Below, one piece after another: positions 10,804 through 64,000 of a DNA stretch of 64,000 nt; the first letter of the stretch is position 1, and each line of letters starts with the position of its first letter. The translations under genes and the position numbers were made by a program. The notes below the pieces were generated by a model that was not told where the DNA came from, searched no databases, and worked only from the letters and a program-made list of their open reading frames with translations. The DNA comes from a virus, in the IMG/VR virus record IMGVR_UViG_3300025000_000078, positions 1 to 64,000 of that record, one strand, 5' to 3'.

Positions 10804-12851
10804 TTATACAGCTTCTTTAAATTGTTTTTCTTGTGATTTTTCTAATCTGTCACATAATTCAAAGATATTTAATAATTGCCCATTTTCATCTGGTTCAACA
10901 TGTGATAATTGTTTTTCTAATATAGGTAATGATTTATTAAATAATTCATATCTTAATTTTTCATTTGTAAGAAACTCTTTTCTAAACTTTCTAGTATCAA
11001 ATTTAATATCTTTTAAACCTTCAATATATTTATAAGGGTTACGACCAGCAATTAATTCATTATCTTCAGCAAATCTTAATTGAGTTAAAATAGGATCAAA
11101 TCCAGTAGACTGGTCATAAATAAGATTTACAAATTGACCAGCTTTATTAGTTCTAGATTTTAAAAATTCAGCTCTTACACCAAAACCATCAAAACCATGT
11201 TCCTCTTTTTTAAACTTTTCTGAACCTAAAGCAATAAAATTTATTAATAAATTAGCATAATAGATCGATATATTCACATTGGTCGTCAGTCAATGCAGTT
11301 CTCTTATGAACTTCCCTAATTTTCACTAGGATACTAGACTATATCTTCATCCTTAATACAATAATGTATTAAGGAGTTACCCATTTCGTAAAGAACTCTG
11401 AAAAGTTCACCTCACCATTATTGACTTGTGAGTCTACTCCTACTCTACTAAAAGTAGCGTCATCAGATAGTCGTTGAACTTTATTCTAATAATATTAATA
11501 TATTAGAATCTTAGCTGCGGATTACCTAATTTCTTACCTTGTTACCATACCTAAGGCATTACCCTTCGCCACTATAATATTGCTATTATAGTTTGGTAGT
11601 AAGAGATTTAAAGGGCTTCCCCGACAATTAAAGTAGTATTAACATAATATTACTATTATGCCACCCTAAATTTAGGTGCATTCCCACCCGTAATGTTCAC
11701 ACTATTCGTTAGATAGTGCAGTTCTCCTATGAACTTCCCTAGAATTTCCCTAGGATACCAGACTATATCATCATCTCTATATTTTCATATATAGATGCTT
11801 CCTATTTCGATTTAAGGGAATCTCACCCACTCACTTGAGCCCTACTCCTATTGCTTATTTCAAAGCCAAGGGATAGTCGTTGAACCTTTCTCTAATAAAT
11901 TAGAGGCTTGGCTGCGGATCACTCAATCCTAAAACATTATTACTATACCTTAGATAGTTAATCTAAGCCATTAATACATTACTATATTAATTTAGTAGTT
12001 TTAGGCTCTAAGAGATTCCCCGACAATTAAAGAAGTTATTCAACATACATTACTGTATGAGGACCCACAAATCTCGAAGGTATCGACTGGTCCATCTTCA
12101 TATATAATAACTGTGGTTGTGTTTTATTCATTGGAGAAATTTCTATTTTTTGATTAATATGATTTATTGCAATAACATTTATATTATATGCTTTTATAAT
12201 TGGCATCAGTCTCTTATAGAATTGAGCTAATGCTTTAGCAACTCTATTAGCATATGTTCCACCTTCCATTTCATTAGAAGTATCTTTTGAAGCAACAGTT
12301 GGGATTGAGTCAATAATCATAATCGTTGGAACAAAAGCTTTAATCGGTCTATTAAATTCATCGAATAATCCAGTATTATAAGTATAGTCTTTTCTATTAG
12401 CTTCTTTTTCCTGAGCTATTTCAACTATACTATTAAATATATCTTCAATATAATTTTTTTCTTGTTTTAATATATATTTATCATCAAGTTCTTGTTGTGT
12501 CATAGATGTTACATTTTTTATTCTGGTGTACGATAAAACTTGTTCTAAATCAAAATGTTGAACAAATGCATTATCATCAAATCTTCTAACAATATTAGCG
12601 GCAATTTGAATAGCAAAAGTAGTTTTAGCGGTACCAGATTTACCTATGATTGTCATAAAAGTACCACCGACTATACCAATAGAAGAATATGTTGTTATTA
12701 AAGTTTCATCTAAACCTCTAACTTCAACCATATACCCATTCCTATAATCAAATGGTACAAAACCTGTTGGATAACAAATCGATGTTTGTGTTGGATTAAA
12801 TAAACCTTTTTTATCCTTTTCTCTTAATCTTGAAAGCATTTTATTAGCCAT
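10804..12851 (-). CDS. recA: RecA/UvsX-like recombinase; spliced from three exons (12851-12078, 11688-11674, 11265-10804; about 416 aa)
   Basis: Walker A GKSGTAKTT, Walker B IIDSI, IAINHI; splicing gives DQSIP-GGNAP-IYYAN (cf. RecA TTGGNALKFYA). Confidence 0.9.
11266..11673 (-). ncRNA. ORF-less group I intron 2 of recA (408 nt)
   Basis: P1 CACCU/GGGUG; P, Q, R (GTTCAACGACTA) and S (AAGATATAGTCT) elements; terminal G at 11266. Confidence 0.9.
11689..12077 (-). ncRNA. ORF-less group I intron 1 of recA (389 nt)
   Basis: P1 ACCU/GGGU; P, Q, R and S elements; terminal G at 11689. Confidence 0.9.
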
Positions 12852-12980
12852 TTTTCTTTAACAATCCCCCTTTTTATTATTTACCCTTATATGATAGTTG
12901 TTCTAAATATAAAATTCTAAAAATATAAAAAAATAAAGAATGGAATTTAACCATTCTTTATTTTTAATAAATTAGATAAT

Positions 12981-13913
12981 TTAATATTTTTGTTTTAAAA
13001 TATTTCCGTTATTCAACATAATGAAGAATATCTTAAAATCATGTTCCAACAGAGATAACGCATTGGAGTAAAACTTTTTAACCCTATTGTTATAATACTC
13101 AGAGTCAACAAATAGAGTTACTGCATTAAATCTCTGTGCTTTTATTTCTTTAATAATATACGGTAATTCAATATTGTTAAATTCCACAATATTGAAAGCA
13201 GAAGTATTACTGAATTTTGGATGTAATTCACGTAATTTATTAACATCCGACTTAAGTGCAAAAATGGTATGAGTAGGTCTACTTGGTCTGAAATTAGATA
13301 TGATATACGGTCTATATTCTTTTTCATTCTTAGAATCTAGAATTTTTTTAGAATATACAACCTTGCCGACAACTTCCGTGATAATTTCAGTACCTTCAAC
13401 AACGTCTTTAATCTCTTCATCATTAATGGTGACAGTATATACTACATCTGATTTGGTGTATTTGTCATACAGTCTAATTTCTAGTGGTTTAGATCTTTTA
13501 TTAACAGCTACAATAAGGGTTAGTTCACCATCAAGTAGATAATGTTCTAACACAGAGATGAAATCTTTACTAATACTGACAATCATCCTCTTACCAACAT
13601 TCAAAGTGATTAACAAAATGTCGGTATTATGGTTATTTTTACTCTGAATTATAAACGGATTAAAATCCTTTTTCCCATGTATAAGACTTGTCAATTTTTC
13701 ACTATCACCAAGAATAACAGGCTCTTTCATTTTAACAAGTTTTGATACAGTGTCACTATCCAGTGGTGTAACTATTTCTTTCATACAACGAATGAAACAA
13801 TGCATGTCATTTACAGGCGAATCTTTTCTTTTAAAGAATGAACCAGTTCTCTCATTAAAATCATTATTATTTATCTCCCAAGGTCTCGGACTTTCGTTAA
13901 AAAGTAATATCAT
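12981..13913 (-). CDS. Hypothetical protein (paralogue of 13963-14874)
   Basis: Shared motifs LFN..PWEI, KDFNPFI, RPxRPT, NAxTLF, C-terminal KY. Confidence 0.7.
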   Translation of the reverse strand: MILLFNESPRPWEINNNDFNERTGSFFKRKDSPVNDMHCFIRCMKEIVTPLDSDTVSKLVKMKEPVILGDSEKLTSLIHGKKDFNPFIIQSKNNHNTDILLITLNVGKRMIVSISKDFISVLEHYLLDGELTLIVAVNKRSKPLEIRLYDKYTKSDVVYTVTINDEEIKDVVEGTEIITEVVGKVVYSKKILDSKNEKEYRPYIISNFRPSRPTHTIFALKSDVNKLRELHPKFSNTSAFNIVEFNNIELPYIIKEIKAQRFNAVTLFVDSEYYNNRVKKFYSNALSLLEHDFKIFFIMLNNGNILKQKY

Positions 13914-13962
13914 GTTTATCTCTCCCCTATTTTATTATTTTTTATCTTTTAATTACATTTTT

Positions 13963-14874
13963 TTAATATTTATATTGTACTATGGAACCAGTGTTTAATA
14001 AAATAAACACTACTCTGAACTTTGATGTGAGTTCTTTTAGTATTACCTTATATCTATCTTCTTCTTCATAATGATCAGCATCAATAAATAAAGTTATAGC
14101 ATTATATTGTTTATCTTTTATTTCTTCTATTATGTCTCTGACATTTTCAAGTTTTTCATCCCAAAAAGTATACATATTATGATATTGTAAACTATTTCTG
14201 TAAAATTTTTCAATTACATTTTCCAATCTCGGATATATATCAACGGAACATATAATTATCTGTGTAGGTCTCTTCGGTCTATTGTTTTTTATTTTTATAG
14301 GTGTTGGTACATAAGATAGATTTAATCTCTGTATATTTTTCATACAGGTTAAATCAAGATTTTGATTATAAAATATAATATATTCTATAATTTCTTTCTC
14401 TTTTTTATCATAAAGAGAAATTATAAATTCAGAATCTATTGTATCCTCCATTGATAACACTATACTTAGGTGATGTCTATTGAGAATATGTTCAATAATA
14501 AAATTTCTACCCATTTCCATATCAAAAGCAATTTTACCATTAATTTCTAAACTTAATAATAAAACATTTCTGTTTTTACCGTCGTATATCGAATGTTTAA
14601 TAAATGGATTAAAATCTTTATGACCAAATACAACGCTGGTATTGTCATCACAAATTTTAACAACATCTTCAGTTTTAGAAAAATTATTAACATGTGTTTT
14701 TATTTTTTCTAAAAAATCTCTCTCATATGACGTTATTGATATACCACAATTATAATGAGGCTTTATATTATCTTTGTTTTTGACTATTCCATAATCCTTA
14801 GAAATTCTTAAATGTTTTTCCCCTTCTCTGGATATTTCCCAAGGGGTTTTTGTATTATTAAACAAATAAATCAT
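13963..14874 (-). CDS. Hypothetical protein (paralogue of 12981-13913)
   Basis: Same motifs as the neighbouring gene. Confidence 0.7.
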   Translation of the reverse strand: MIYLFNNTKTPWEISREGEKHLRISKDYGIVKNKDNIKPHYNCGISITSYERDFLEKIKTHVNNFSKTEDVVKICDDNTSVVFGHKDFNPFIKHSIYDGKNRNVLLLSLEINGKIAFDMEMGRNFIIEHILNRHHLSIVLSMEDTIDSEFIISLYDKKEKEIIEYIIFYNQNLDLTCMKNIQRLNLSYVPTPIKIKNNRPKRPTQIIICSVDIYPRLENVIEKFYRNSLQYHNMYTFWDEKLENVRDIIEEIKDKQYNAITLFIDADHYEEEDRYKVILKELTSKFRVVFILLNTGSIVQYKY

Positions 14875-14942
14875 TATACTCCGCCTTCTCTCTATTTTAT
14901 TTTACCAATCTTTTCTATTTAATAATTTTGTTTATTTACAAA

Positions 14943-15299
14943 TTATTTTTTAATTGAAACTTCATCATAAAAATGAATAAATATTTTGTATTTACCAATA
15001 CATAAGACATTATCTGATGGAAGTTTATTCCAATCAGAACAAATCTCTCTAATTATATTTTTTATTTTATAAAACACTTCAACATTTTCTTGTATTAATA
15101 CATTAATAAAACCATAAGCAGAACTATTATTTTCCTCAATAATACAAGATTCATAATGACTAAAAAACAATTCATTTATTTCTTCTGTAAGTTTTAAGTA
15201 TTGTAATAATCTTTTATATACTGATAATTTTAAACCTTCTCCTAGTCTATTAAAATAAAAAGCACCATCGTATTTACCTTCATTTAACATATTTATCAT
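14943..15299 (-). CDS. Hypothetical protein
   Basis: 118-aa ORF with AGAAAGGA RBS. Confidence 0.6.
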   Translation of the reverse strand: MINMLNEGKYDGAFYFNRLGEGLKLSVYKRLLQYLKLTEEINELFFSHYESCIIEENNSSAYGFINVLIQENVEVFYKIKNIIREICSDWNKLPSDNVLCIGKYKIFIHFYDEVSIKK

Positions 15300-15317
15300 T
15301 TATCCTTTCTAAAATAA

Positions 15318-15355
15318 ATTTAATATAAGGTTGATTAATCAACCTTATATTAAAT
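15318..15355. terminator. 38-bp perfect palindrome, probable terminator
   Basis: ATTTAATATAAGGTTGATT|AATCAACCTTATATTAAAT. Confidence 0.6.
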
Positions 15356-15363
15356 ATTATTTT

Positions 15364-16218: not shown

Positions 16219-16422
16219 ATTCCTCCTTTTAAATTTTACAATAAGTTTCTAATATTAATTTGTTGTTTATTTACAAATTAATTTTTAAAATATCCACTCC
16301 TTAAAAATTTATTCCGTATACTTAAAAATAATATATATTTATAAATTAAATATAATTTTTATGTAATAATAAAAAAATAGATATTGGATTATTATTACCC
16401 ATATCTATTTTATATAACTAAT

Positions 16423-17121: not shown

Positions 17122-17213
17122 TGATATACCTCCTATTTTTTATTTTTAAATAATTTTATTCGGTATAAATTAGATTATAAAATTTACACCGAATAAAATA
17201 TAATAGTATTATA

Positions 17214-17654
17214 TTATAATGTTAATGAAGTTATTTGTACAAAATCAGCTGATTCTGAATAATAACCATTAGATGTACCATACCAACTAATTGTCACATA
17301 TCCTTTTATTGTTGCAAGTTTATAGAATGTCCAACTATAACTTGTTTCCCCATCATCTTTATTACCAGAATCACTTGTTTCTTCGGCCATTAAGATAGGT
17401 GAATCAATCAAATCTTCAATATTTCCAATTATATCATGCATATCAACTGATTCACAACACAACTGACAATGAAACATAGAATAAATTGCACCATCCGAAC
17501 AGTAGAAATTTATTTTTTCACTACTTTTATCGATATCAATTTTAGTTAAGGTTTTTCCAATAAGTTCATTGAAGGGTAATGTAATAAAGTATTCTTCACA
17601 GTTAACAACTATTTTTTTCAATTTTTTATTTTTTTTCTTTTTCAATAGTTTCAC
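17214..17654 (-). CDS. Hypothetical phage protein
   Basis: [11 protein letters not shown]...[27 protein letters not shown], resembling a widespread small phage family. Confidence 0.65.
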
Positions 17655-17772
17655 CCCTAATATAAAATTTTAATTTCTTTAATTATAATATATATTTATA
17701 TTCTCTTTTTATATGTTCCTAAAAATATAAAAAATAATAAGATGTGTCTTTTAAACACATCTTATTATAAAA

Positions 17773-17934: not shown

Positions 17935-17950
17935 TTTATTCACCTCCTTA

Positions 17951-19651
17951 TTATTTTAAAGATTTCTTAACTAACAAACCTTTTGTAACTAGGTCAGACA
18001 AAATTCCCATTGATATTAAGTGAACATCAATTAAATTTAAAGTCACTTTATTTTCAACGTTATTAGTTAAACTATTTAAAGAAACAAAACCTTTTTGTGC
18101 TATTTGTGCATACATTTCATTTTTCATGACCATATCATCTGATCTAGGCGATATATTCACATAGGTCGTTAATCTATGCAGTTCTCTTATGAACTTCCTT
18201 ATCTTTCGATAAGATACTAGACTATATCATTAACCTAATAACTTTCATTAGGTTACTTCCCATTTCGATTTAAGGGATTTTCACCCACTCACTTGAGCCC
18301 TACTCCTATTGTGTATTTTAACACTAGGATAGTCGTTGAACTTTATTCTTATTTTCAATTTTATAATTTTTCGAAATATGATCCCATTTACCATATTTTA
18401 TCCCATCTATTAAACTATAAAAACTATTATTATCTTTTCTTTTTTTATAGCCATAGATATGCATTATTTGCATTTGAGTAAGTCCTTTCTCAAGATATTT
18501 ACAAATATCTTCTACTATCTCTTCCGAATATTTAGCATAATAATTTAAACTACCTTTACAACCAAATCTACTTTTACTATGAATTAAACTAAATTCATTA
18601 TTTTCTTTGGTTGTAACCCATTCAAGATTCTCATAATAATTATTAAATGTGCATGTGTCTTTATGATTTACATTCGTTCTTTTTTGTTCTTTATTATAAC
18701 CATTAACAAATTCCCATGCAACAAGTCTATGGGTTCCAACAATTTTTACTTTTTTAGTTTCACCAATTAAAACTGAGTATAAATATCCTTTTTTATCAGA
18801 ATATGGATTTATTATTTTATTGATGTGTATATCTTTAACTTTACCAAAATTACTTATTAAGTAGCTATTTTTTTTAATAAATGGGTATGTGATAATTCGA
18901 AAAATTTCTTTATCTTTTTTAATAATTATATACATTTATTATCATCCTTTTTAAAATAAATTAAATAAATGTATAATAATATATTAAAAAAAATACTTAA
19001 TTAATAAATAAGAATCTTAGCTGCGGATTACTCAATCTTTTTATTATATAATAAAAAGCTCTAAGAGCTTCCCCGACAATTAAAGAAGTTTTCTATATAT
19101 GTTACCATATATAGGGGCTAAGCTATGTAACCCATAAATTCACGTAATGCATCAATAGCATCAACAGATAATAATGAAAAATTTTCTTGATCGGATTCTC
19201 TAGCATTTTTATCTTCCCCAACAACTTGACCTGTCATTGCAGAACGACTTGAACTTTTCAATGATAAAGTATTTTTTTTACTTAATAGTTGTTGCATTCT
19301 TTTAACATGAACATACCCAACAGGTACTTCATATTTAATAACAATAGGATTTTCTATACTATTATTAACAAAAGGCACTACTACTTTTTCAAATAAAGGT
19401 ATGTCTAAGATTTTAGCTGCTTTTTCTATATTTTCGATAGTTAGATCTCTTTCATAATCAACCATATCTAGAATAAGATATTGTTCATCATCTTTAAAAA
19501 ATTCTTTAAAGAAAATATTAAATTGTATATCACTCATTGGTTGAAATAATTCTTTATATTTTTTAGTATTAATACCTGTTGGGTCTAATTCATTAAATGT
19601 TTCATAGATTACTTTTTCCATTTTTTTTCTCTTATCTTTATTTATAGTCAT
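17951..19651 (-). CDS. rpoB: Second RNAP beta C-terminal fragment (probably virion RNAP); spliced (exons 19651-19130 and 18148-17951, about 239 aa)
   Basis: PVGYVHVKRMQQ...TGQV...ENFSLLSVDAIDALREFMG-PRSDDM resembles VGYMYMLKL...[24 protein letters not shown]; late-type motif upstream at 19686-19697. Confidence 0.8.
18149..19129 (-). mobile_element. Group I intron with HNH ORF
   Basis: P1 GGGU/GCCC; P, Q, R and S elements; terminal G at 18149. Confidence 0.9.
18324..18935 (-). CDS. Intron-encoded HNH homing endonuclease
   Basis: YLISNFGKV, HRLVAWEF, VNHKD...NNYYENLEWVTTKENN; its 3' end reads through the intron R element. Confidence 0.9.
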   Translation of the reverse strand: MYIIIKKDKEIFRIITYPFIKKNSYLISNFGKVKDIHINKIINPYSDKKGYLYSVLIGETKKVKIVGTHRLVAWEFVNGYNKEQKRTNVNHKDTCTFNNYYENLEWVTTKENNEFSLIHSKSRFGCKGSLNYYAKYSEEIVEDICKYLEKGLTQMQIMHIYGYKKRKDNNSFYSLIDGIKYGKWDHISKNYKIENKNKVQRLS

Positions 19652-27245: not shown

Positions 27246-27392
27246 ATTAAAACCTCCTTAAAACCCAATAAGTATATTTATTTCCCCTTTATTGGTGGGA
27301 ATAATATTTAATCTATTATAATAATATATATTTATTATTAATAAAAATACTAAAATAAAATACTAGTAATATACTAGTATTTTATTTATAAT

Positions 27393-27865
27393 TTAAGTTC
27401 TTTTATATATAGTTATAAAAGGTGTTGTCTGATAAGCCATAGCTAAATAATTACCATCTGGTGAAAAAGAACATCCTCTACCAATACCTGTAGGTAATAT
27501 ACTAGGATCAGATAATTTAGTAAATGTATCACCACTTCTTTTATATATAGTTATAAAAGGTGATGTATCACACGCTACAGCTAAATAATTATTATCTAGT
27601 GAGAAATAACAATCAAAACCAGTATATGGAGGTAATATACTTGGATCAGTTAATTTAGTAAAAGTATCACCATTTCTTTTATATATAGTTATATAAGGTG
27701 ATGTACCATGTCCTATAGCTAGATAATTATTATCTGGTGAGAAAGAACAACTATAAGCAGTACCTGTAGGTAATATATCTGGATCAGATAATTTGGTAGA
27801 TGTATCACCCCTCCATTATTAATAATATTTTTAAAACTACTCATTATCATTAAATTAATTAACAT
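27393..27865 (-). pseudogene. Frameshifted three-blade copy of the adjacent beta-propeller gene
   Basis: Similar N-terminus (MLINLMIMSSF), then out of frame at about 27810; three 46-aa blades open in another frame to TAA at 27393; flanks also duplicated. Confidence 0.8.
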
Positions 27866-27991
27866 ATTTATCAACCTTTCTTTTTAAGTATTTTATACTA
27901 ATGTTGAAAGTATAGATATGGATGAATATACTTATTATTAATATAAATACTAAAATAAAATACTAGTATATACTAGTATTTTATTAATAAG

Positions 27992-29008
27992 TTAACCTCT
28001 TTTATATATAGTTATATAAGGTGATGTATCATGCGCTACAGCTAAATAATTACCATCTGGTGAGAAAGAACAACCATAACCATTACCTGTAGGTAATATA
28101 CTTGGATTAGATAATTTAGTAAAGGTATCACCATTTCTTTTATATATAATTATATAAGGTGTTGTGTAATGTGCTACAGCTAAATAATTACCATCTGGTG
28201 AGAAATAACAACCTCTACCAGTACTTGTAGGTAATATACTTGGATTATCTAATTTAGTAAATGTATCTCCACTTCTTTTATATATAGTTATATTAGGTGT
28301 TGTGTAATGTGCTACAACTAAATAATTATTATCTGGTGAGAAAGAACAACCATAAGCACCACCTGTAGGTAATATACTAGGATTAGATAATTTAGTAAAT
28401 GTATCTCCACTTCTTTTATATATAGTAATATAAGGTGATGTATTATGTGATACAGCTAAATAATTATTATCTAATGAAAAAGAACAACCTGTACTATAAT
28501 TTGTAGGTAATATACTAGGATCAGGTAATTTAGTAAATGTATCACCACTTCTTTTATATATAGTTATATAAGGTGATGTATTATGTGATACAGCTAAATA
28601 ATTACCATCTGGTGAGAAATAACACCCATAACCATTACCTGTAGGTAATGTACCAGGATTATCTAATTTAGTAAATGTATCTCCACTTCTTTTATATATA
28701 GTTATATAAGGTGATGTATCATGTGCTACAGCTAAATAATTATTATCTGGTGAGAAAGAACATCCATAACCAGTACCTGTAGGTAATATACTAGGATTAG
28801 GTAATTTAGTAAAGGTATCACCTTCCCTTTTATATATAGTTATATAAGGTGAAGAACTATGTGCTACAGCTAAATAATTATTATCTGGTGAGAAATAACA
28901 ACCATAACTAATACCTGTGGGTAATATATTAGATTCATCTAATTTAGTTAATATACTATTATTATTATTATTATTAAAACTACTCATTAACATTAAGTTA
29001 CTTAACAT
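27992..29008 (-). CDS. Seven-bladed WD40-like beta-propeller (putative adhesin); likely start at 29008
   Basis: 7 x 46-aa (138-bp) near-identical repeats TKLxxPSILPT..GCxFSPDxNYLAVAH..PYITIYKR. Confidence 0.8.
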   Translation of the reverse strand: MLSNLMLMSSFNNNNNNSILTKLDESNILPTGISYGCYFSPDNNYLAVAHSSSPYITIYKREGDTFTKLPNPSILPTGTGYGCSFSPDNNYLAVAHDTSPYITIYKRSGDTFTKLDNPGTLPTGNGYGCYFSPDGNYLAVSHNTSPYITIYKRSGDTFTKLPDPSILPTNYSTGCSFSLDNNYLAVSHNTSPYITIYKRSGDTFTKLSNPSILPTGGAYGCSFSPDNNYLVVAHYTTPNITIYKRSGDTFTKLDNPSILPTSTGRGCYFSPDGNYLAVAHYTTPYIIIYKRNGDTFTKLSNPSILPTGNGYGCSFSPDGNYLAVAHDTSPYITIYKRG

Positions 29009-29142
29009 AATAATCAACCTTTCTTTATAAGTATTTTATATCAATGTTGAAAATATATAAAATATTTATACTTTAAACTATAATAAATAAAAATTTATAG
29101 ATAAGGTAATTCTCTCTCACCTTATCTATAAATTTAAATAAT

Positions 29143-42234: not shown

Positions 42235-45234
42235 TTATTTTTTTTTATTTAATGCTGATGAAAAATCAAATAAATCTTCTTCTTTATCTTCTTTAATTAC
42301 TTTTCTTTCTACTGCATTTCTTTTACCTTTTTTATCTATATTTAAATCAACACCTTCAAAATCTGTTGATAAACTTTCTTCAGATAATGAATGTTCTAAA
42401 TAGATATCATCAATAAGTCTAATTCTATTACCAACTTCAAATGGATGGTTAAAATAACTTAATTCGTAAGTATCCCTATATCTTATTTTAACTCTTTTAA
42501 ATGTTAAATAATAATTATTAGTATTCTTTTTCTTTTCTATGTTAATGATAATAACAACGTCACTATTTTCAATAACTTCAAAAGCTGAGCCTACATTACC
42601 TCTACCCATGAATCTTGCTAAATCTTCTTTATTAGCCATTAGTGCACTATCTCGTTGGTTCACATAGGTCGTTAATCTATGCAGTTCTCTTAAGAACTTC
42701 CCTAGTTTTCACTAGGATACCAGACTATATCATTATCTCTCGGTATAAGAGATATTTCCCGTTTCGATTTAAGGGATTCTCACCCACTCACTTGAGCCCT
42801 ACTCCTAATGCTTATTTCAAAGCCAAAGGGATAGTCGTTGAACCTTGTTATTAAATATCGTATAAATTACTTATATGTCTCCATGATTTTTTATTTCTTA
42901 TTTTTTTAATTAAATCTATAGTTTTTGGTTTATTTCGTATATCATCATTATGTTTTATTCTATCATATATTTTACCCTGACTTAAACCTTGTTTGTGTAA
43001 TAAACATATCTGATGAACTGTTTCTTCATTATAAACATTTAATACACTATTAATCCCTCTAGGATTCCATAATCCAATTTTTATAGCATGTACATTATTT
43101 TCTGAAGGAGTTACCCATTCAAGATTTTGATAATAATTATTATTTTTAAAACCATCTTTATGATTAACAAATATTTTATATTTAGAATTAGGAAAATCTA
43201 AAAAATGTTTGGCTACTAATTTATGAATTGATTGATTTATAAAAGTAGCTTTATTTCTATATAAAGAAACTTTTAAATAACCATTTGGTCTCTTTTGAGG
43301 TTTTAAAATCTTATTTGATGTTTTAGAATAAACTCTACCATAATTACTTAAAAGATAATCTGGGAAAAGAGGCATCTGTTTCCATTCTTCATTAATAATT
43401 ATTTGTATAAGTAATTTATTCATTTTTATTTTTTCACCCCTTTATTTTATACGATTTTATTTTGAGTTTAAATATTTTTATACGATATTTAATAACCTTG
43501 GCTGCGGATCACTCAATCCTAAACATTATTACCATACCTAAGACATTATTCTTAGCCACTAAAATATTTCTATTCTAGTTTGGTAGCTTAGACTATAAGA
43601 GATTTCCCGCAATTAGAGAAATTTTCATATGATATTTCTACCATATGCCGCATATAATTTACGGCTATTGCGCCAGTTCTATTTAATTGCTTTATTTTCA
43701 TACTATTCGTTAAATAGCACAGTTCTCTTATGAACTTCCCTAAGTTTCCTTAGGATAAAAGACTATATCATTATCTCTTATTTAAAGAGATACTTTCCTT
43801 TTCGATTTAAGGGATTCTCACCCACTCACTTGAGCCCTACTCCTATTGTGTATTTCAACACCTATGGGATAGTCGTTGAACCTTTCTCTAATAGTTTATT
43901 AGAGACTTGGCTGCGGATTACTCAATCTTTTTATTGTATAATAAAAAGCTCTAAGAGCTTCCCCGACAGTTAAAAAAGTTTTTCATTATAAATCACTTTA
44001 TAATGCCACCTATAAATTGATGGGCTGTAATAACAGGTATATCTTTATCAACAGCTAAATTCTTTAATTCATTAGTTACATTTTTTAACTCTTCTTTTTC
44101 ATCTTTAGCTTTTTCATATGGTCTAATTCTTTTAATATAATCTAAAATTAAAGCTATTACTTCTTTACCATCATCAGATAATTCATCTATTATTGTATAT
44201 AAATCAGCAGTTGATATTTCTCTATTAGGATAATATTTAATGATAATGTCAATATCATTATCATCAGATAAAATTAATTCTCCATCTTCTTTTAATTTCT
44301 TTATTACCTGTTTAGCAGTAAAACTTCTAATATCATCTGAAGTTACTGTCATATTAAATAGTCTTTCAACACTCTCCTGGACTGTATTTTCAGCTGTTAC
44401 TAATAATACACAAGGTTTCTTACCAGGTTTTTTAACTTTTATACCTTTATTATATTTCTTTATATCAACTGCTGTTTTTAAAAGAATACCTGATTTAAAA
44501 CCCCCAGGTAAACCTAAATATGTATAAAGACATTTACTCATATATCCAGGAGATAATATATGATTTAATTTTTGTATACCAGTTCTTAATATACGAGCAG
44601 GGTCTTTTAACTCATTGACTATATCAGTAACAACATCTTTAAATACATCTTCTTCCAAACTAAAAGTTTGTGTATTATCAACAGTTGAAACTTTCCTTGT
44701 GTGATTTAATATTTTACTACAAATTTCAGTTAATTCATCATTAACTTCTTGAAAGCTATTATACTCCCCACTGTCAAGACGTTCAATACTTTCGTATAGT
44801 CTATCTTTATAATTAAATAAATAAGCATATTTAAGTCTATCTACAATAGCTTTATTAATATATTTAATTTCTTCATAATTTATCTTCTTATATATGATTA
44901 GAGATTTTATTATTTCTTCTATTTCTTTATTGAAAGTATCAGTTCTACAATAATTAACTATTGCATCTTCATTCTCAAATCCTCTATCTAAACGAGCTTC
45001 TAAAGCTCTTTTAATAAAGTACGTTCTTGATTCTATTTTTTCATTTCCTTCATAAATTCTTTCATCTATAATCTCAAATAAATTCTTTAAATTAGTTAAA
45101 GATTTTCTTGATACTTGTGAAGAATTCTTAAATATAAAACCTATTAACATATTTAACATACTAATATCAAATTTTAGGCTTATTTTCTTTACTTCATTCT
45201 CAACCACCTTAAATAATTTTCTTTTACTTACCAA
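42235..45234 (-). CDS. dnaB: DnaB-like replicative helicase; spliced from three exons (45234-44020, 43689-43661, 42652-42235; about 553 aa)
   Basis: GLPGGFKS, ILDYI; splicing gives IPVITAH-QLNRTGAIAV-DSALM (motif H3 xQLNR); exon 3 has SAFEVIENSD. Confidence 0.9.
42653..43660 (-). mobile_element. Group I intron 2 of dnaB, with HNH ORF
   Basis: P1 GCCGU/GCGGC; P AATTGCGGGAAA; Q, R and S elements; terminal G at 42653. Confidence 0.9.
42851..43423 (-). CDS. Intron-encoded NUMOD4/HNH homing endonuclease
   Basis: EEWK...YLLSNYGRV, HKLVAKHF, VNHKDGFKNNNYYQNLEWVTPSENN. Confidence 0.9.
   Translation of the reverse strand: MNKLLIQIIINEEWKQMPLFPDYLLSNYGRVYSKTSNKILKPQKRPNGYLKVSLYRNKATFINQSIHKLVAKHFLDFPNSKYKIFVNHKDGFKNNNYYQNLEWVTPSENNVHAIKIGLWNPRGINSVLNVYNEETVHQICLLHKQGLSQGKIYDRIKHNDDIRNKPKTIDLIKKIRNKKSWRHISNLYDI
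43690..44019 (-). ncRNA. ORF-less group I intron 1 of dnaB (330 nt)
   Basis: P1 CCAU/GUGG; Q, R and S elements; terminal G at 43690. Confidence 0.9.
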
Positions 45235-48176: not shown

Positions 48177-50093
48177 GTGTCAGTCAAAAAACGTATTCTA
48201 CATCGTAGAGACTCTACTTTAAATTGGGAAACAGTCAATCCTATATTGGATAAAGGTGAATTTGGTGTAGAGGAGATAGGAAATGATAAACTTAAAATTA
48301 AATTAGGTAACGGTGTTTCTAGTTGGGATTTATTACCGTATATTAATGATGAAGATTTGGAACAAGTTATAGAATCTTTAACTTTATTAATAAATAATCT
48401 AGCAGGTTCCGGTAGAACTACTGAAACGGTTAAACAAAATTCTACTGATTTATCAAATCATATTAATGATAATATTCCTCATGGTTCAACATCTGATGCG
48501 ACACCCGATACTATTATATTAAGGAATAGTTTGGGTAGAGCTAAAGTATCACCACCTAATGCAATAGATGACATTGCTAGGTTAGATACTGTTAATAATG
48601 CAATTTCATCATTAGTTAATTCAGCTCCCCAAGTATTAGATACATTGAATGAAATAGCTATTGCGTTAGGAAATGATCCAAATTTTAGTACAACAATGAT
48701 TAATGCGTTAGCTAATAAATTAGCAATAAGTGATTTTAATGTTCATTTATTAGATTATGTTAAACAAATCCCATATGCTGTAACTTCAGGTTCAGATAAT
48801 AATTATTCTATAAATCTTAATCCGGCCCCAATATCTTATGTAGATGGTATGGCTGTAGCAGTTAAAATAAATATCAATAGTACTGGTAGTTCTACTCTAA
48901 ATGTAAATAACTTAGGTGCAAAAACGATTAAAGATTCTTTAGGTAATGATATAATTTCAGATGGGTTAAAACAAGATATTATTTATTCCTTACGGTATAA
49001 TTTAACAAATCAGACTTTTATTGTACAGGGTAAAGGAGGTGGTGGAACAGCTAACGCCGATGATTTATATATAGGGACTACTGCAACTAATGATAGTGGA
49101 TTAATAATAGGTACTAATAAATATAAAATTGGTGCATTTATAGATATGGGTAATTTACAACAAAATATCAGAGAAATATGGTCACTTACTGATGGTAATT
49201 ATGCTCGTTCTATTGCAATTGACAGTTCTGGGAATGTATATGTTGGATATTATGATGTGATAGGTAATAAAACTGTTCGTAAATTAAATAGTTCTGGTGA
49301 AGAAATATGGTCACTTACTGATGGTAAGTATGCTACTTCTATTGCAGTTGACAGTTCTGGTAATGTATATGTGGCATATTATGATGTGATAGGTAATAAA
49401 ACTGTTCGTAAATTAAATAGTTCTGGTGAAGAAATATGGTCACTTACTGATGGTAATTATGCTCGTTCTATTGCAATTGACAGTTCTGGGAATGTATATG
49501 TGGCATATAAAGATATGGGGGGTAATAAAACTGTTCGTAAATTAAATAGTTCTGGTGAAGAAATATGGTCACTTACTGATAGTAGTTTTGCTACTTCTAT
49601 TGCAATTGACAGTTCTGAGAATGTATATGTGGCATATGATGGAAATATAACTGGTAGTGATAAGTCTGTTCGTAAATTAAATAGTTCTGGTGGAGAAATA
49701 TGGTCACTTACTGATGTTAATCATGCTCAGTCTATTGCAATTGACAGTTCTGGGAATGTATATGTTGGATATTATGAAAATTCAAGTGGTAAACAAGTTC
49801 GTAAATTAAATAGTTCTGGTGGAGAAATATGGTCACTTACTGATATTGGAGAGGTTAATCATATTCAAGTTGACAGTTCTGGAAATATATATGTGGGATA
49901 TAGTGAAATGGAGGGTAATAAAATTGTTTGTAAATTAAATAGTTCTGGTGTAGAAATATGGTCACTTACTGATGGTAATTATGCTCGTTCTATTGCAGTT
50001 GACAGTTCTGAAAATATATATGTGGCATATAGTGTTTCGGCAAGTAATAAGAATATTCGTAAATTATTCTATGGATATCAAATAATTTCTTAA
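48177..50093 (+). CDS. Tail fibre/receptor-binding protein with C-terminal seven-blade beta-propeller
   Basis: N-terminal NW...NPIL.KGE.G...K.G.G; LDTLNEIAIALGNDPNF fibre motif; 7 repeats of about 43 aa. Confidence 0.85.
   Translation: MSVKKRILHRRDSTLNWETVNPILDKGEFGVEEIGNDKLKIKLGNGVSSWDLLPYINDEDLEQVIESLTLLINNLAGSGRTTETVKQNSTDLSNHINDNIPHGSTSDATPDTIILRNSLGRAKVSPPNAIDDIARLDTVNNAISSLVNSAPQVLDTLNEIAIALGNDPNFSTTMINALANKLAISDFNVHLLDYVKQIPYAVTSGSDNNYSINLNPAPISYVDGMAVAVKININSTGSSTLNVNNLGAKTIKDSLGNDIISDGLKQDIIYSLRYNLTNQTFIVQGKGGGGTANADDLYIGTTATNDSGLIIGTNKYKIGAFIDMGNLQQNIREIWSLTDGNYARSIAIDSSGNVYVGYYDVIGNKTVRKLNSSGEEIWSLTDGKYATSIAVDSSGNVYVAYYDVIGNKTVRKLNSSGEEIWSLTDGNYARSIAIDSSGNVYVAYKDMGGNKTVRKLNSSGEEIWSLTDSSFATSIAIDSSENVYVAYDGNITGSDKSVRKLNSSGGEIWSLTDVNHAQSIAIDSSGNVYVGYYENSSGKQVRKLNSSGGEIWSLTDIGEVNHIQVDSSGNIYVGYSEMEGNKIVCKLNSSGVEIWSLTDGNYARSIAVDSSENIYVAYSVSASNKNIRKLFYGYQIIS
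49170..50065 (+). repeat. Seven near-identical repeats of about 129 bp (propeller blades)
   Basis: gaaatatggtcacttactgat recurs seven times. Confidence 0.85.
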
Positions 50094-56979: not shown

Positions 56980-56982
56980 TTT

Positions 56983-57342: not shown

Positions 57343-57357
57343 AATTATTTTCTCCTA

Positions 57358-59484: not shown

Positions 59485-59597
59485 ATTAATTACCTCCTAA
59501 TAATTTTATTTATATATTAATACTTCATTGTTATAATATATAAATAAAAAGAAGATAACTAATATTAGTTATCTTCTTTTATAAAATAATCATTTAA

Positions 59598-59975
59598 CTA
59601 TTTTTTATGTATTTCTAGTATGTGGCACCATTTAAAAAATCTATCACCATAATTTGTTGATATATTTACACCTCTCCAAGTAATAGCTTTTACAATACCA
59701 TGACTTAAAATATTATTATATTTATAAATAATTATGTCACCTAAATTTACTTTTTTTCGAATTAAATCACCTCCTCGATCCGTAATATAATCACAATAAA
59801 TGTTTTTAATTATTTCATATTCTGCATATTTTATTAAATCTATTTTGTCTTCTTTTAAATTAATATAAAATTGTTTTGGTATACTTAAATGTGTTTTCTC
59901 ATTAACTTTAACTTTTTCAATCAAATCAGTAAATTTTTCACCATATACAACTTCTATTAATATCAATATAAACAT
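59598..59975 (-). CDS. Hypothetical protein
   Basis: 125-aa ORF. Confidence 0.55.
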   Translation of the reverse strand: MFILILIEVVYGEKFTDLIEKVKVNEKTHLSIPKQFYINLKEDKIDLIKYAEYEIIKNIYCDYITDRGGDLIRKKVNLGDIIIYKYNNILSHGIVKAITWRGVNISTNYGDRFFKWCHILEIHKK

Positions 59976-60020
59976 CCCCCTTATACAAAATTAATCTATT
60001 GTATATAATCAAATAAATTT

Positions 60021-61265
60021 CTAGTTTTCTTCATTAAATCCATATACATCAAACATTAATGTATTTATATACAAGACATTTACATATATTATTAATCTAT
60101 ATGTTGAATATATATTAACATTTTTTGTTATTAAAATCAATGTATTAAAATCAATATCATATTCCCCTATATCTTTATTTAACATTTTATTATCCATCAT
60201 AACAGAAAACTTTAATATTGTTTCTAATGGAACTCCATGGGTTAAACAATATTCAATAGATGTTAATATACTTTTATTTAATACTTGTTTTATATCCATT
60301 AAATCTGGTTGAATATCACTCTCAACTTTATACAAAGGATATGCATATAGAGTCCATCCAGTAGGAATTTGTTCAGTAAATAAATTACTAATTGTAAACA
60401 TAGGTATTATTTGATTTTTATTATCAATTATGGACATATCTGTTTGAGTTATAACTCCTGAACTTTGTGTTACATAGTAATACAATCCTGCACCATTAAA
60501 TTCTGTTGAAATTGTAAATGTTGTTGCATAAGAATCTGAAACCATTCCTTTTTTACTTCCATCATCAATAGTTAAACTAGAAAAAGTTGTATCTATATTA
60601 ACAGGATAAAATCTAAAAAATTCATCATTAGATGAAGCATTTTTTACTTTATATGTCACTGGAAATATAGACACTCCGTTCATATAATCTAAAAAAGTTT
60701 TAACACTTCCATCTGGAGTATATAGTTCAATTCCTATATCTTTAGCTAAAAGTTCCATAAGACCTCTAGGAATATAACTTTCTAAACATGTTTCTAAAAA
60801 AAATGGTTTATCTTGTCTTATCCTATTTTTTAAATAATTAGCTTGATTCAATTGTTGTATCTGTGTATCTGTTATTATTGTTACATCAAAATACATTTTT
60901 ATACGATTTAATAAATACTTTATATACACACCTTTTTTTCTATCTTCAATAAATGGTTGTAAATTACTAAAATCAATATCAAAAAAATTATCTGTAATTC
61001 TAGTAGTTAAGTATGTTCCGTAAAGAAATGTATCACTATCATCTAATTCTATTCTTGGTTTAATTATTAATATAGGTTTATTCTTTTTTATAAATTCTTT
61101 ATTTGAATTTTGAAATATATTAAATTGTTTATAAGCTATAGATGAACTAATATGAATTGTTTTAAAATAATTTGGAGTAAATAAACTTCTAACAAACTCT
61201 GTCATAAAAGAAGTAATATTACCAAAAGTGTGCGCTAATGATGTTTGAGCCATAGCGTATTCCAT
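60021..61265 (-). CDS. Putative virion structural protein
   Basis: 414 aa; AACA-N6-TA at 61294-61305. Confidence 0.55.
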   Translation of the reverse strand: MEYAMAQTSLAHTFGNITSFMTEFVRSLFTPNYFKTIHISSSIAYKQFNIFQNSNKEFIKKNKPILIIKPRIELDDSDTFLYGTYLTTRITDNFFDIDFSNLQPFIEDRKKGVYIKYLLNRIKMYFDVTIITDTQIQQLNQANYLKNRIRQDKPFFLETCLESYIPRGLMELLAKDIGIELYTPDGSVKTFLDYMNGVSIFPVTYKVKNASSNDEFFRFYPVNIDTTFSSLTIDDGSKKGMVSDSYATTFTISTEFNGAGLYYYVTQSSGVITQTDMSIIDNKNQIIPMFTISNLFTEQIPTGWTLYAYPLYKVESDIQPDLMDIKQVLNKSILTSIEYCLTHGVPLETILKFSVMMDNKMLNKDIGEYDIDFNTLILITKNVNIYSTYRLIIYVNVLYINTLMFDVYGFNEEN

Positions 61266-61357
61266 AAATTAACCCCATTTCTTTATAATATATTAACTGA
61301 TTGTTTTTGATAAAAATTAAATGAAAAAAATAAAGGTGAAATAAATCTCACCTTTAT

Positions 61358-61735
61358 TTATCTCAAATTTTTAATATTAAAGTTTTTCTTAATATAATCG
61401 ACTTCTGGTGAAGGTTGGAATTCCCCTTTAGGGATATATATTGCTATCATATCTCTACCATTTGGGTCCTTAGAAGAAATAGTAACAACATACTTCATAT
61501 TAACATCAAAGTTTGTTTTACCATCCTTCTTATAAATAATACTACCGTTTTTGGGTATGATTAATGTTACTTTGTCCCTAACTAATAGATACTTATTAAA
61601 TCTCATAGGGTCATTAGTAACTCTAATTAAATACTGATTATCTATATCAATATTGTTGATTACATGCTCTAATTCATCCTTACTTAATTCGGGTGCCCTT
61701 TTCCCGATTATTCCAATCAGTCGGGCGACCCTCAC
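61358..61735 (-). CDS. Hypothetical protein (start uncertain; possibly ATA at about 61771)
   Basis: Frame is open back to an ATA that follows AAGGAGGAG. Confidence 0.55.
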   Translation of the reverse strand: MRVARLIGIIGKRAPELSKDELEHVINNIDIDNQYLIRVTNDPMRFNKYLLVRDKVTLIIPKNGSIIYKKDGKTNFDVNMKYVVTISSKDPNGRDMIAIYIPKGEFQPSPEVDYIKKNFNIKNLR

Positions 61736-61846
61736 CTCCAGTCGAATCTTCCTAAAGTATCCTCGCTTTATTGGTATCTCCTCCTTAAATTTTTCTTACT
61801 TATTACGCAAATAATATATAAATATAATGTTAGAATATACGATTTT

Positions 61847-63220
61847 TTAGATATTATTAAATTCATATAGACCAATGATTTGATCTTTTAATAGATTAAA
61901 GTCATCATTAAATAAACCATCATTTCTAGAAATAAACATGGATGTCACTGGGTTAAATGTCTTATTGAAGGCTTTTATATGTTTTTTAGACTTCAAGGAT
62001 ATGATATTTAGGATATCTCCGTCAAACCTAGAGTAATGTATTTTCATACATTAGAGACTATATTTTCATCCTATTATAATTTATAATAGGAGCTATGCGC
62101 TTCCCAGCTAACCCACAAATTAGCCAGTACTCCACTTATTCATATTTAATATATTCTATTATATATGAATTTGGGATAGTCGTTATACCTTCTTCTATTA
62201 ATCTATAAAGTTTTTTATAATTTTCATTAATTGCTTTATCATAGATTTCTTTACGTTTATTTTCATCTAAGTAAAACACATAATGTTCCTTTATTTTACA
62301 TGGCATTCGTAAAGCATTTTTTACTTTATCTTTATTCATATCAATAAAATCACCAAATAATTTAGCACTATCACAGATATAAAATTTATCATCTTTGATT
62401 GCTATTATTTTATTAGATTTTTTTCTTTTAGTTTCAGCAGTTTCTTTTAAACCCTTATGAGATTCAGACATCTCTTTCTAACATCATTATTGAATATTCT
62501 TCTTTTATCTAAATTTGAATTGTATCCTTTATTATAGTCAAGTGAATCATATTCTTTTATATAATTGATTTCTTTTTCAGATAATTCAATTTCACTAAAA
62601 CAATATTCAAGAATCTCATATTCAAAGTTTTCAAACCCATATTCTTCAATAGCTCGGGCTATTGGATAATTGGCCTCTTTCCAACTATTTCTATGCTTAC
62701 TTATTCTTTTTCTAAAATTAGTGGTTCGTCCAATATAGATTTTATCATTAATCTTATTTCTTAAAAGATAGACCACACCATATGGTTTAATTTTAATATC
62801 TATTGTTAACAATTTTATAACCTCCTTTCTTTTATGTTGTTTTAGCAATTAAATTATAGATTATAGATTAATAGAAGCTTGGCACGGTATTACCTGCTAT
62901 CCATATTCCAGGACCGTAGGTTCTCTTAGAAAGTGTATTCGCTTATGGACATGTCACATAGACAAGGCTTGTAATTGTCATACAAGCAATCTTATTTAAC
63001 TTTTACCGTTAGCAAGTAATAATAAAATATTACTTACACCGCTTGTTAGGCGTTCACATAGAACTCGCTATATCATTACTGATACGCCGGACCTCGACTT
63101 AGATTGATCCGCATTTAAAACCTTCAATATTTGTATGGGTAAACTCATTGTATATTCATCAGTAATACTATTTTTAATATCAACTATCTTCATTAAAAGC
63201 ATACTTCCGAAATTAATTGT
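61847..63220 (-). CDS. rpoC: RNA polymerase beta' N-terminal-half subunit, last two exons (63220-63107 and 62026-61847); 5' part outside window
   Basis: Exon TINFGSM...LKVLNAD joins FDGDILN to give catalytic NADFDGD; the gene ends about 55 aa later, as in split jumbo-phage beta' subunits. Confidence 0.92.
62027..63106 (-). mobile_element. Group I intron inside NADFDGD, with GIY-YIG ORF; core differs from the other introns
   Basis: P1 CGGAU/GUCCG; AATACCGTG, TATAACGACTA, AAAATATAGTCT; terminal G at 62027. Confidence 0.88.
62136..62848 (-). pseudogene. GIY-YIG homing endonuclease split by a 1-nt frameshift (62447-62848 plus 62136-62471)
   Basis: GVVYLLRNKINDKIYIGRT catalytic domain; NUMOD3-like MSESHKG...ETKRKKS in the overlapping frame. 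Confidence 0.75.
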
Positions 63221-64000
63221 CTAAAGGTTCACATAGGTCGTTACTCTATGCAGTTCTCTTATGAACTTCCCTAACTCTCATTAGGATACCAGACTATATT
63301 ATCATCTTTATATAAGTTATAAAGAGACACCTATTTCGATTTAAGGGAATTTCACCCACTCACTTGAGCCCTACTCCTGTTGTACATTTCAGTACTTAAA
63401 GGATAGTCGTTGAACTTTTCTTATACTGTTCAGTATTTATATTTGTTTGTAATATGTGACCATCTTTCCTTTCTTTTAATTTTACCAATAAAATTTTTTA
63501 ACAGAATATCTGATTTTTTATCATATTCTGTAAAATTTAATCTAATTAATTTAAGTATTTTATCAACAGATTCATTACACACTAATAATTTACAAATAAA
63601 TTTAACAAGCTTTTCAGTATAAATTGAAGCAAAATGTGCTTCACCCTTATATTGCCAATGTAACCCCATTTTAACTGCATGTCTGATATTATCACCATGA
63701 GTTGACCATTCTAGATTTTTATAATAATTATTTCTTTTAATTCCATTTTTATGATTCACTTCTATTTTGTTTAAATCATCATTTTTTACAAATTCATAAC
63801 AAACCAGTCTATGAATACTAAATTGTCTTTCTTTAATAATTTCTTCCCCTGTTTGTAATGCAAGTCTATAGTATCCAGCTGAACCTAATTGTTGTGATAA
63901 AATATGGTCCCAATTTTTATTTTTTATTCTACCATGATCTGATATTTGATAAAGATTATTTTTAACACCTGGATAGGTAACATCTTTCCATACTTCAGTT
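63221..64000 (-). mobile_element. Group I intron (5' part outside window) in the beta' gene, with HNH ORF
   Basis: R, S and 3' domain nearly identical to the recA, dnaB and beta introns; terminal G at 63221. Confidence 0.88.
63430..63999 (-). CDS. Intron-encoded NUMOD4/HNH endonuclease (5' end outside window)
   Basis: EVWKDVTYPG..YQISDHGRI...IHRLVCYEF...VNHKNGIKRNNYYKNLEWST. Confidence 0.88.
   Translation of the reverse strand, partial: TEVWKDVTYPGVKNNLYQISDHGRIKNKNWDHILSQQLGSAGYYRLALQTGEEIIKERQFSIHRLVCYEFVKNDDLNKIEVNHKNGIKRNNYYKNLEWSTHGDNIRHAVKMGLHWQYKGEAHFASIYTEKLVKFICKLLVCNESVDKILKLIRLNFTEYDKKSDILLKNFIGKIKRKERWSHITNKYKY

Follow-up and report, generated by a model that had tools for sequence, protein, structure and literature searches.

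The window, a stretch of 64,000 nucleotides, carries a multi-copy family of IA-type group I introns. In our overall account, which we regard as probably correct, the introns of this AR9/PBS1-like phage exchange modules across loci, the sites that they occupy turn over, and new sites are occasionally gained. The window comes from a 74.9-kb fragment (25% GC) of an uncultured AT-rich jumbo phage related to AR9 and PBS1. A megablast comparison of 11 kb of window sequence with the phage collection gave no near-identical cultured phage. Gene order is the same as in a relative, G001, over the 72 kb that the two have in common. DNA common to the compared phages, all of which are represented by metagenome assemblies, is 79-90% identical, and the exons of the compared genomes are 79-92% identical. 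A circular contig, with the introns at its two ends (X750 and J74) forming one intron across the junction, was ruled out, since the ends map to non-adjacent positions of G001 (74.5k and 146.4k) and completeness estimated by CheckV was 31%.

The intron family and its predicted splicing

We identified nine pieces of the family on the 74.9-kb contig, together with two more divergent introns. The features are as follows.

1..924, minus strand: intron X750, 5' part (P1-P6), 5' splice site at 924
688..2, minus strand: HNH-like ORF of X750, running past the contig start
upstream of X750, minus strand: its host gene, with a match to phrog_2943 'polymerase'
8000..9434, minus strand: divergent intron X9297 in an RNA polymerase beta gene, 5' splice site near 9434, 3' splice site provisionally within 8000-8060
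9241..8216, minus strand: endonuclease ORF of X9297, 341 aa
9567..9568, minus strand: empty target site AACGGGT/AGATATGG (slash, insertion point), filled in G001 and at locus L126
11266..11673, minus strand: intron uvsX2, 408 nt, no ORF, variant type of P7.1/P7.2
11674..11688, minus strand: 15-nt micro-exon (GGNAP) of the UvsX-like recombinase gene, with a uvsX intron on each side
11689..12077, minus strand: intron uvsX1, 389 nt, no ORF
18149..19129, minus strand: intron E18 in an RNA polymerase beta-piece gene (phrog_3233), short P5 type
18935..18324, minus strand: HNH/NUMOD4 ORF of E18
42653..43660, minus strand: intron dnaB2, with an HNH/NUMOD4 ORF at 43423..42851
43661..43689, minus strand: 29-nt micro-exon of the DnaB-like helicase gene
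43690..44019, minus strand: intron dnaB1, 330 nt, no ORF, short P5 type
62027..63106, minus strand: intron of a different family (GIY62) in an RNA polymerase beta'-like gene, with a GIY-YIG ORF in two pieces
63221..64000, minus strand: intron H63, continuing to contig position 64257 outside the window, with an HNH/NUMOD4 ORF
64490-65895 of the contig, outside the window: intron I64, a further copy
74751-74946, at the contig end, outside the window: intron J74, a further copy

X9297 has a family-like 5' core and a 3' half unlike that of the family. The introns interrupt essential genes at conserved motifs. In phages of this kind, gene calls and contigs are fragmented by micro-exons and repeated introns, which annotation and assembly pipelines should therefore expect.

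A preliminary description of this DNA had proposed a single intron lineage in several genes on the strength of two repeated motifs. The family was indeed found in the genes of a UvsX-like recombinase, a DnaB-like helicase and RNA polymerase subunits. The first motif, CAGTTCTCTTATGAACTTCC, occurs with at most one mismatch at 11296, 11719, 18179, 42682, 43720 and 63251 (0 expected in shuffles), and the longer block has an exact 26-nt core at 11824, 18282, 42781, 43819 and 63353 (0 expected by chance). The 26-nt core is present in 17 IMG/VR contigs. These positions held, but the quoted strand did not: introns and host genes lie on the minus strand, and the motifs as quoted are thus the reverse complements of P9.1 and P7.2.

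Comparison with Rfam RF00028 (gathering score 50 bits) gave 86.6 bits for dnaB1, the best match, and 60.8 bits for uvsX2, while uvsX1 (46.7 bits) and dnaB2 (29.2 bits, with a 658-nt ORF-bearing insert in P6) fell under the cut-off; G001 has 14 matches above it. The U at the exon end is paired with a guide G in all eight members whose 5' end lies on the contig, and all eight members that have a 3' end terminate in G. Exact junctions of six members are backed by intronless alleles or collinear homologues, the empty alleles agreeing exactly with the predicted junctions, and joining the predicted exons gives a UvsX-like product of 417 aa and a DnaB-like one of 554 aa, both collinear with homologues that lack introns. 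Splice sites outside this backing come from an automatic P1 finder and are provisional, and the 5' splice sites of the G001 introns at 178k and 228k were set by the motif DYDG/DQV. In the cases checked, the ribozymes appear intact and precise excision at the predicted sites restores the reading frames.

RNAalifold analysis of 32 family 3' halves showed an invariant P7 and compensatory changes in P7.1, P7.2, P9 and P9.2 (16 of 38 predicted pairs). An insert of ~75 nt with two covarying hairpins lies at the P7.1/P7.2 position, between P7 and P3'. This anatomy, and similarity to the introns of Twort, K and AR9, suggest an IA2-like subgroup.

Endonuclease ORFs of the HNH/NUMOD4 type are found in P6 of five family members, those of E18, dnaB2 and H63 all being located in the P6 loop. 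The Pfam cut-off for HNH_3 (24.8 bits) was exceeded by the ORFs of E18 (29.7) and H63 (26.7), with dnaB2 below it (23.1); that for NUMOD4 (23.4 bits) was exceeded by dnaB2 (37.4) and H63 (32.3), with E18 below it (16.5). The family ORFs are predicted to be I-HmuI-like HNH/NUMOD4 homing endonucleases.

Exchange of modules between loci

Mosaic sharing between introns of different genes had been pointed out in the preliminary description, and alignment of the segments bore this out. Positions 19008-19092 (E18) and 43898-43982 (dnaB1) are 91.8% identical over 85 nt, and 11717-11888 (uvsX1) is 87% identical to 42680-42846 (dnaB2). Triplet breakpoint tests, in which gap columns inflate the counts of informative sites, showed that J74 is uvsX1-like through P7-P7.2 and then I64-like through P8-P9 (informative sites 55:1 versus 2:30, permutation p=2e-4); the corresponding counts for E18 were 55:6 versus 4:19. 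The PHI test on the 3' half gave p<=0.001, a value that RNA covariation can inflate, and per-module identity matrices were mutually discordant. Clustering of modules (single linkage at 90% identity) showed uneven merging and splitting with few four-gamete squares, which alone is weak evidence.

Comparison across genomes gave a similar picture. Positions 11489-11633 of uvsX2 are 100% identical over 145 nt to positions 227135-227279 of G001, a different locus, and the exons of this relative are 85-92% identical. Both partners had the same-site intron as their closest match in only 3 of the 15 half-by-pair comparisons. In L044, the same-site uvsX introns have kept P1-P2 and have had other modules swapped in, and a change of the exon end from ACCT to CCCT is paralleled by a change of the guide from GGGT to GGGG.

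Could such similarity simply reflect structural constraint within one intron subgroup, with neither recent common history nor exchange? Introns of AR9, PBS1 and Staphylococcus phages match the 3' half of the family at 73-80% identity, and an AR9 intron has the same layout of P7.1/P7.2, P9.1 and P9.2, as this explanation would predict. Against it, non-allelic introns have exact tracts of 85-168 nt in common that include peripheral loops and linkers, in genomes with exons that are 79-92% identical, and alternative module types distinguished by indels are reassorted among copies. We consider constraint extremely improbable as the sole explanation.

The same exact tracts raise the question of assembly artefacts, in which the assembler switched among repeated intron copies or co-occurring strains: some of them exceed common k-mer sizes, and introns lie at both contig ends. 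However, correct exons flank every intron and the G001 gene order is kept throughout the common DNA, and an artefact would thus require two compensating path switches around each mosaic intron. The same pattern is also present in separately listed IMG/VR contigs, helices are still paired across module junctions, and the contig broke within the repeats at its ends instead of being joined across them. An artefactual origin of the mosaics is therefore very unlikely.

We also compared introns within and between genomes. One module allele, of P7.2, was enriched in a single genome: with two compensatory pair changes, it was seen in 8 of 10 typed introns of G002 and in 1 of 20 in G000 plus G001 (p=6e-5). 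Non-orthologous introns gave no sign of concerted evolution in either the 3' half (mean identity 72.6 within versus 71.3 between genomes, p=0.16) or the 5' core (62.8 versus 64.1, p=0.72). Strict genome-wide concerted evolution is not supported by these values, and, as identity is not higher within genomes, exchange appears to use a module pool common to the phage population.

Taken together, these comparisons show, at the level of sequence, that internal modules (the P5 extension, P7.1/P7.2, P8, P9, P9.2 and sometimes P2) have been repeatedly swapped across loci, and that a site tends to retain its 5' guide and endonuclease gene. We infer that the exchange takes place in DNA, as non-crossover gene conversion or template switching, and it may be seeded in invariant core tracts of 20-50 nt during recombination-dependent replication or co-infection. 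All copies in the window are direct repeats, so that crossovers would delete essential genes and be lost.

Site occupancy and the proposed gain of new sites

The dnaB gene is without introns in G001, and in G002 it has introns at two other sites. Each of the I64, H63, GIY62 and 83k introns is present in some genomes and absent from others: the GIY-YIG-bearing intron at 62027..63106 is present in G002 and absent from G001, and H63 is absent from G002 and is present without its ORF in G001. These filled and empty alleles show a fast turnover of occupied sites among phages whose common DNA is 79-90% identical.

The preliminary description had stated that all guides differ. We found instead that both uvsX introns pair the exon end ACCU with the guide GGGU, and that guides fall into families: GCCC serves at least five GGU-ending sites, GGGC two GCCU-ending ones, GGGG three with CCCU at their end, and GGGU two with ACCU. 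The AACGGGT site, which has no intron in the window or in outgroup phages, is occupied in G001 and L126 by a 331-nt intron without an ORF, whose guide, P1 loop and P2 are the same as those of E18. In G001 this is the 83k intron, which has the exon end GGGT and the guide GCCC in common with E18. Reverse splicing would leave such a pattern, and so would selection for splicing after insertion or conversion at the DNA level. Of the two processes originally proposed, exchange among introns of different loci is thus upheld, and ectopic spread to new sites receives indirect support, from the recurrence of a guide-plus-P2 module at at least five GGU-ending sites.

Recurring guides at several sites with the same short target, and ORF-less copies at sites where close relatives and outgroup phages have no intron, are also what a recent burst would leave behind, in which a master intron spread by RNA-guided reverse splicing with little later exchange. 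Such a burst is at odds with the endonuclease proteins of different sites, which are merely 27-54% identical, and with breakpoints that lie inside introns. Relatives' same-site introns differ by whole modules with P1-P2 kept, which is not a product of reverse splicing, and G000, G001, G002 and G004 gave no match to a reverse transcriptase domain (RVT_1, PF00078), although a host enzyme might take this role. We therefore think a recent burst improbable.

In the account that we prefer, with module exchange and turnover of sites, new sites would occasionally be gained at short GC-rich, U-ending targets that already pair with an existing guide. The route would be either reverse splicing or an illegitimate repair of DNA after which splicing was selected for. 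A bolder proposal, which we think less likely than not, is that the introns of this clade still colonise new genes by guide-matched integration that resembles reverse splicing, at GC-rich sites of four bases with U as the last, and that rampant module exchange keeps the ribozyme pool uniform. If this were true, the filled and empty sites of closely related genomes, with donors that can be identified, would make this the first natural system in which to reconstruct and test the long-debated ectopic route of group I mobility.

Comparison with known systems

The suggestion that these introns form an undescribed system was not sustained, since they are IA-type group I introns with HNH endonucleases and intron-dense jumbo phages have been published (PMC12880540). 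AR9 and PBS1 (Takahashivirus) represent a related phage lineage, with UvsX-like and DnaB-like proteins that are 30-34% identical to those described here. Their introns lie in the same kinds of host genes (the AR9 RNA polymerase beta gene, AR9_g189, is annotated as six joined pieces), and the architecture is the same, including P7.1/P7.2, P9.1 GTTCATAAGAGAAC and HNH endonuclease genes. The introns of AR9 and PBS1 have about 73-80% identity to the family in the 3' half, and AR9 has 5 matching places compared with 17-19 family hits in G001. We know of no published analysis of module exchange in AR9.

Staphylococcus phages Twort and K also carry several IA-type introns per genome, sometimes several per gene, with 73-77% identity to the family in the 3' half and HNH endonucleases such as I-KsaI. 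In contrast to the family described here, their copies are fewer and their hosts different, and to our knowledge mosaicism between loci is not a described feature of these phages.

Phage T4 has three homologous IA2 introns, in td, nrdB and sunY, and spontaneous domain shuffling among them was reportedly described by Bryk and Belfort in Nature in 1990. As in the present family, related group I introns lie in different genes of a recombination-proficient phage, and chimeras arise via common core sequences. However, the T4 case involves three copies and a crossover in the laboratory that deleted the intervening DNA, whereas each genome here has about 10 to 20 copies or more. Exchange among these occurs naturally and repeatedly, with the flanks left intact, and is seen as reassortment of modules across related genomes.

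Group I introns average 18.5 per genome in Jug phages, and crAss-like phages are also intron-dense (PMC12880540). There, as here, many group I introns and homing endonucleases interrupt essential genes of large uncultured phages. These are different phage groups, however, with introns averaging about 206 nt, and as far as the accessible text of that study goes, neither inter-locus exchange nor sharing of guides is described (PMC12880540).

Ectopic mobility of group I introns has been proposed to occur via reverse splicing or relaxed endonuclease specificity, the former route being, according to a review, without direct experimental support (PMC3984707). As in these proposals, related introns are found here at different sites, with targets of 4-6 nt that pair with the guide; the evidence here is comparative. 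It is acknowledged that the way in which group I introns arrive at new sites is still an open question. The present clade offers dozens of near-identical ribozymes at many sites, filled and empty alleles, recurring guide families and donor-like copies, a combination that makes this question approachable by comparison, and by experiment in a cultured relative.

The contig and its introns

The record is a single virus contig of 74,946 nt (25% G+C), of which the window covers the first 64 kb, with a CheckV completeness of 31%. It is collinear with positions 74.5k-146.4k of G001, a 250-kb IMG/VR genome, at 79-90% nucleotide identity; all sequences compared are metagenome assemblies. Both contig ends lie inside introns and map to non-adjacent places in G001, which rules out a circle and identifies the contig as a fragment broken at repeats. 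A UvsX-like recombinase is the product of the recA-like gene, and the dnaB-like gene codes for a divergent helicase of DnaB type. The closest cultured relatives of these proteins, at 29-37% identity, come from jumbo phages (BpSp, AR9/PBS1, Listeria phage LPJP1, Staphylococcus jumbo phages and Yersinia phage phiR1-37). Further interrupted genes match phage RNA polymerase subunit families (phrog_3295, 3233, 2987, 2962 and Pfam Rpb2_6), and one matches phrog_2943, labelled 'polymerase'.

The Rfam matches to group I introns are on the minus strand, and the motifs quoted in the preliminary description are therefore reverse complements of helix P9.1 and the P7.2 region. The recurrence claimed for them was confirmed: the 20-mer has six copies when one mismatch is allowed, the long block has five exact copies of its 26-nt core, and neither is expected in shuffled sequence. 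Every family member lies on the minus strand.

Introns of the contig (contig numbering, 5' splice site to 3' splice site)
X750: 924 to beyond contig start, minus strand, HNH-like ORF running off the end
uvsX1: 12077..11689, minus strand, no endonuclease ORF
uvsX2: 11673..11266, minus strand, no endonuclease ORF
E18: 19129..18149, minus strand, HNH ORF
dnaB1: 44019..43690, minus strand, no endonuclease ORF
dnaB2: 43660..42653, minus strand, HNH ORF
H63: 64257..63221, minus strand, HNH ORF
I64: 65895..64490, minus strand, 314-aa ORF
J74: 3' part only, ending at 74751, minus strand, ORF portion outside the contig
X9297, divergent intron: ~9434..8000 (3' end approximate), minus strand, 341-aa endonuclease ORF
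Second divergent intron: 63106..62027, minus strand, GIY-YIG ORF

The spliced UvsX-like (417 aa) and DnaB-like (554 aa) products align collinearly with homologues from other IMG/VR phages whose genes are uninterrupted, and at the dnaB1, dnaB2, I64 and H63 sites the predicted junctions equal the empty alleles of relatives base for base. We infer splicing, cleavage and conversion in these introns. In each member P1 has a U.G pair at the splice site and the intron ends in G. P7 is invariant, and P7.1, P7.2, P9 and P9.2 carry compensatory changes (16 of 38 pairs, 32 copies). Subgroup IA is suggested by the anatomy, in that a 75-nt insert with two hairpins separates P7 from P3'. HNH_3 and NUMOD4 domains are encoded by the endonuclease ORFs, which are located in the P6 loop.

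The GIY-YIG frame (window 62136-62848) is divided between two overlapping ORFs (62447-62848 and 62136-62471), which points to either a frameshift or decay of the homing endonuclease gene. A 133-nt repeat in the 5' part of this intron (window 62884-63016) recurs with 99.2% identity at contig 71814-71946, beyond the window, where it probably marks another intron of the GIY-YIG family. In a more distant relative (L052), whose UvsX-like protein is 61% identical, uvsX is interrupted at a nearly identical position by one intron of 1.2 kb (3801-5027) that contains an HNH-like ORF; the 3' half of this intron is like the divergent X9297 type, unlike the main family.

The window also holds two tandem arrays. 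The first (27326-29057; period ~138 nt, copies 81-88% identical) overlaps ORF 27992-29017 on the minus strand, and its sole G001 counterpart, at 231.6-232.7 kb, is outside the otherwise collinear block; the second (49171-50066; period ~129 nt, 82-85% identity) is within ORF 48177-50093 on the plus strand. The gene that hosts E18 has a short second exon, and just downstream of it lies ORF 17214-17654, with a DUF7448 domain (E=1e-28).

Exchange of ribozyme modules

The ribozyme modules have alternative forms, which are combined differently from copy to copy. For the P5 extension, uvsX1, H63 and I64 share long form a; X750, uvsX2 and dnaB2 share long form b; and E18 and dnaB1 have a short form. 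P7.1/P7.2 is of type 1 in six members and of type 2 in uvsX2 and I64. J74 matches I64 at 91% in the P8 module and 100% in the P7'-P9 module, and its P7-P7.2 is 92-100% identical to uvsX1 but just 48-49% to I64. Informative sites for J74 against uvsX1 and I64 divide 55:1 before column 131 and 2:30 after it (permutation p=2e-4), and those for E18 divide 55:6 versus 4:19; gap columns inflate these counts, with the direction of the result unaffected. The PHI test, which RNA covariation can bias, gave p<=0.001 for the 3' halves and p=0.02 for the 5' cores. Self-comparison recovered both shared segments named earlier, that of the beta-C and dnaB-1 introns (19008-19092 versus 43898-43982, 91.8% identity) and that of recA-1 and dnaB-2 (11717-11888 versus 42680-42846, 87%).

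Profile searches found 17-19 family matches in G001, 11-13 in a 187-kb relative (G002) and 12-22 in a 100-kb fragment (G004), and none or one in two further complete relatives. The uvsX2-internal stretch 11489-11633 is 100% identical over 145 nt to G001 227135-227279, in an intron at another locus; the intron that G001 has at the uvsX2 site retains P1-P2 but has the short P5 module. Exact tracts of 85-168 nt are common to non-allelic introns (10 of the 15 longest within one genome), in comparisons where exon identity is only 79-92%. With the module forms and breakpoint tests, these tracts uphold the mosaic sharing between loci proposed earlier. For ten same-site pairs, 15 half-by-pair comparisons were made, and in only 3 of them was the same-site intron closest for both partners; endonuclease proteins are 27-54% identical from site to site. 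In this picture the ends and the endonuclease genes stay with the site, and the ribozyme interiors are drawn from a common pool.

A P7.2 allele with two compensatory pair changes is present in 8 of 10 typed G002 introns versus 1 of 20 in the window's genome and G001 combined (p=6e-5). Non-orthologous copies showed no within-genome excess of identity, their mean being not above the between-genome mean, which limits a concerted-evolution reading. The module pool is common to the phage population, and both co-infection and recombination inside a single genome could account for such exchange.

Site turnover and guides

Occupied sites differ among relatives. The dnaB gene of G001 is without introns, and that of G002 has them at residues 286 and 439 versus 405 and 414 in the window's genome. 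I64 is found in the window's genome only, H63 is missing in G002 and ORF-less in G001, and the GIY-YIG intron is missing in G001. The guide, the intron strand that pairs with the 5' exon end, recurs too: GCCC, its P1 loop and the P2 hairpin form one module at at least five non-orthologous sites ending GGU, GGGC serves two sites ending GCCU, GGGG three ending CCCU, and GGGU both uvsX sites, ending ACCU.

A GCCC copy interrupts the RNA polymerase beta gene of G001, and locus L126, at AACGGGT/AGATATGG. This site is empty in the window (9568/9567), and two outgroup lineages have it uninterrupted, with GGA as the codon. A gain in the G001 lineage is the more parsimonious explanation. The intron may have arrived by reverse splicing, which would predict this pattern; DNA-level insertion, or a conversion tract through P1, followed by selection for splicing would leave an identical one. 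A search of the window's genome, G001, G002 and G004 found no reverse transcriptase gene.

At the dnaB2 site (42620-43689 compared with G001 113800-113895) the flanking exon reads GCA ATA GCC GT/A (AIAV), and intronless relatives have GCA ATT TCA GTG or GCA ATA AGT GTA (AISV). In the occupied allele the exon thus pairs with the guide GCGGC, as would result if it had been co-converted with the intron or had adapted later.

A possible route of exchange and known relatives

Invariant 20-50-nt tracts in P3-P4, P4'-P6, P7, P7.2, J8/7-P7' and P9.1 could supply homology for strand invasion or template switching. The phage encodes a UvsX-type recombinase, and its HNH endonucleases would make breaks beside the introns. 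The window copies are all direct repeats and lie among essential genes, so that non-crossover products alone would be viable, which would account for mosaic interiors within intact synteny.

The suggestion of an undescribed system did not hold. An AR9 intron has the family architecture, including the P9.1 hairpin GTTCATAAGAGAAC, and introns of AR9, PBS1 and Staphylococcus phages of K and Twort type are 73-80% identical to the 3' half of the family, which makes its members part of a broad known phage intron family. They are new copies in a family from phages mostly of Gram-positive hosts, and the kind of element is already known. Multi-intron genes are likewise on record, the AR9 RNA polymerase beta gene being annotated as six joined pieces. 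In T4, three homologous introns were reportedly found by Bryk and Belfort in 1990 to be able to recombine via core sequences, and this is the nearest precedent known to us for the exchange seen here. Intron-dense huge phages have been published, among them Jug phages with an average of 18.5 introns per genome (PMC12880540). A limited literature search found no description of natural, repeated module and guide reassortment among dozens of dispersed phage introns. We rate these as copies of a known kind of intron that show an unusually clear evolutionary pattern.
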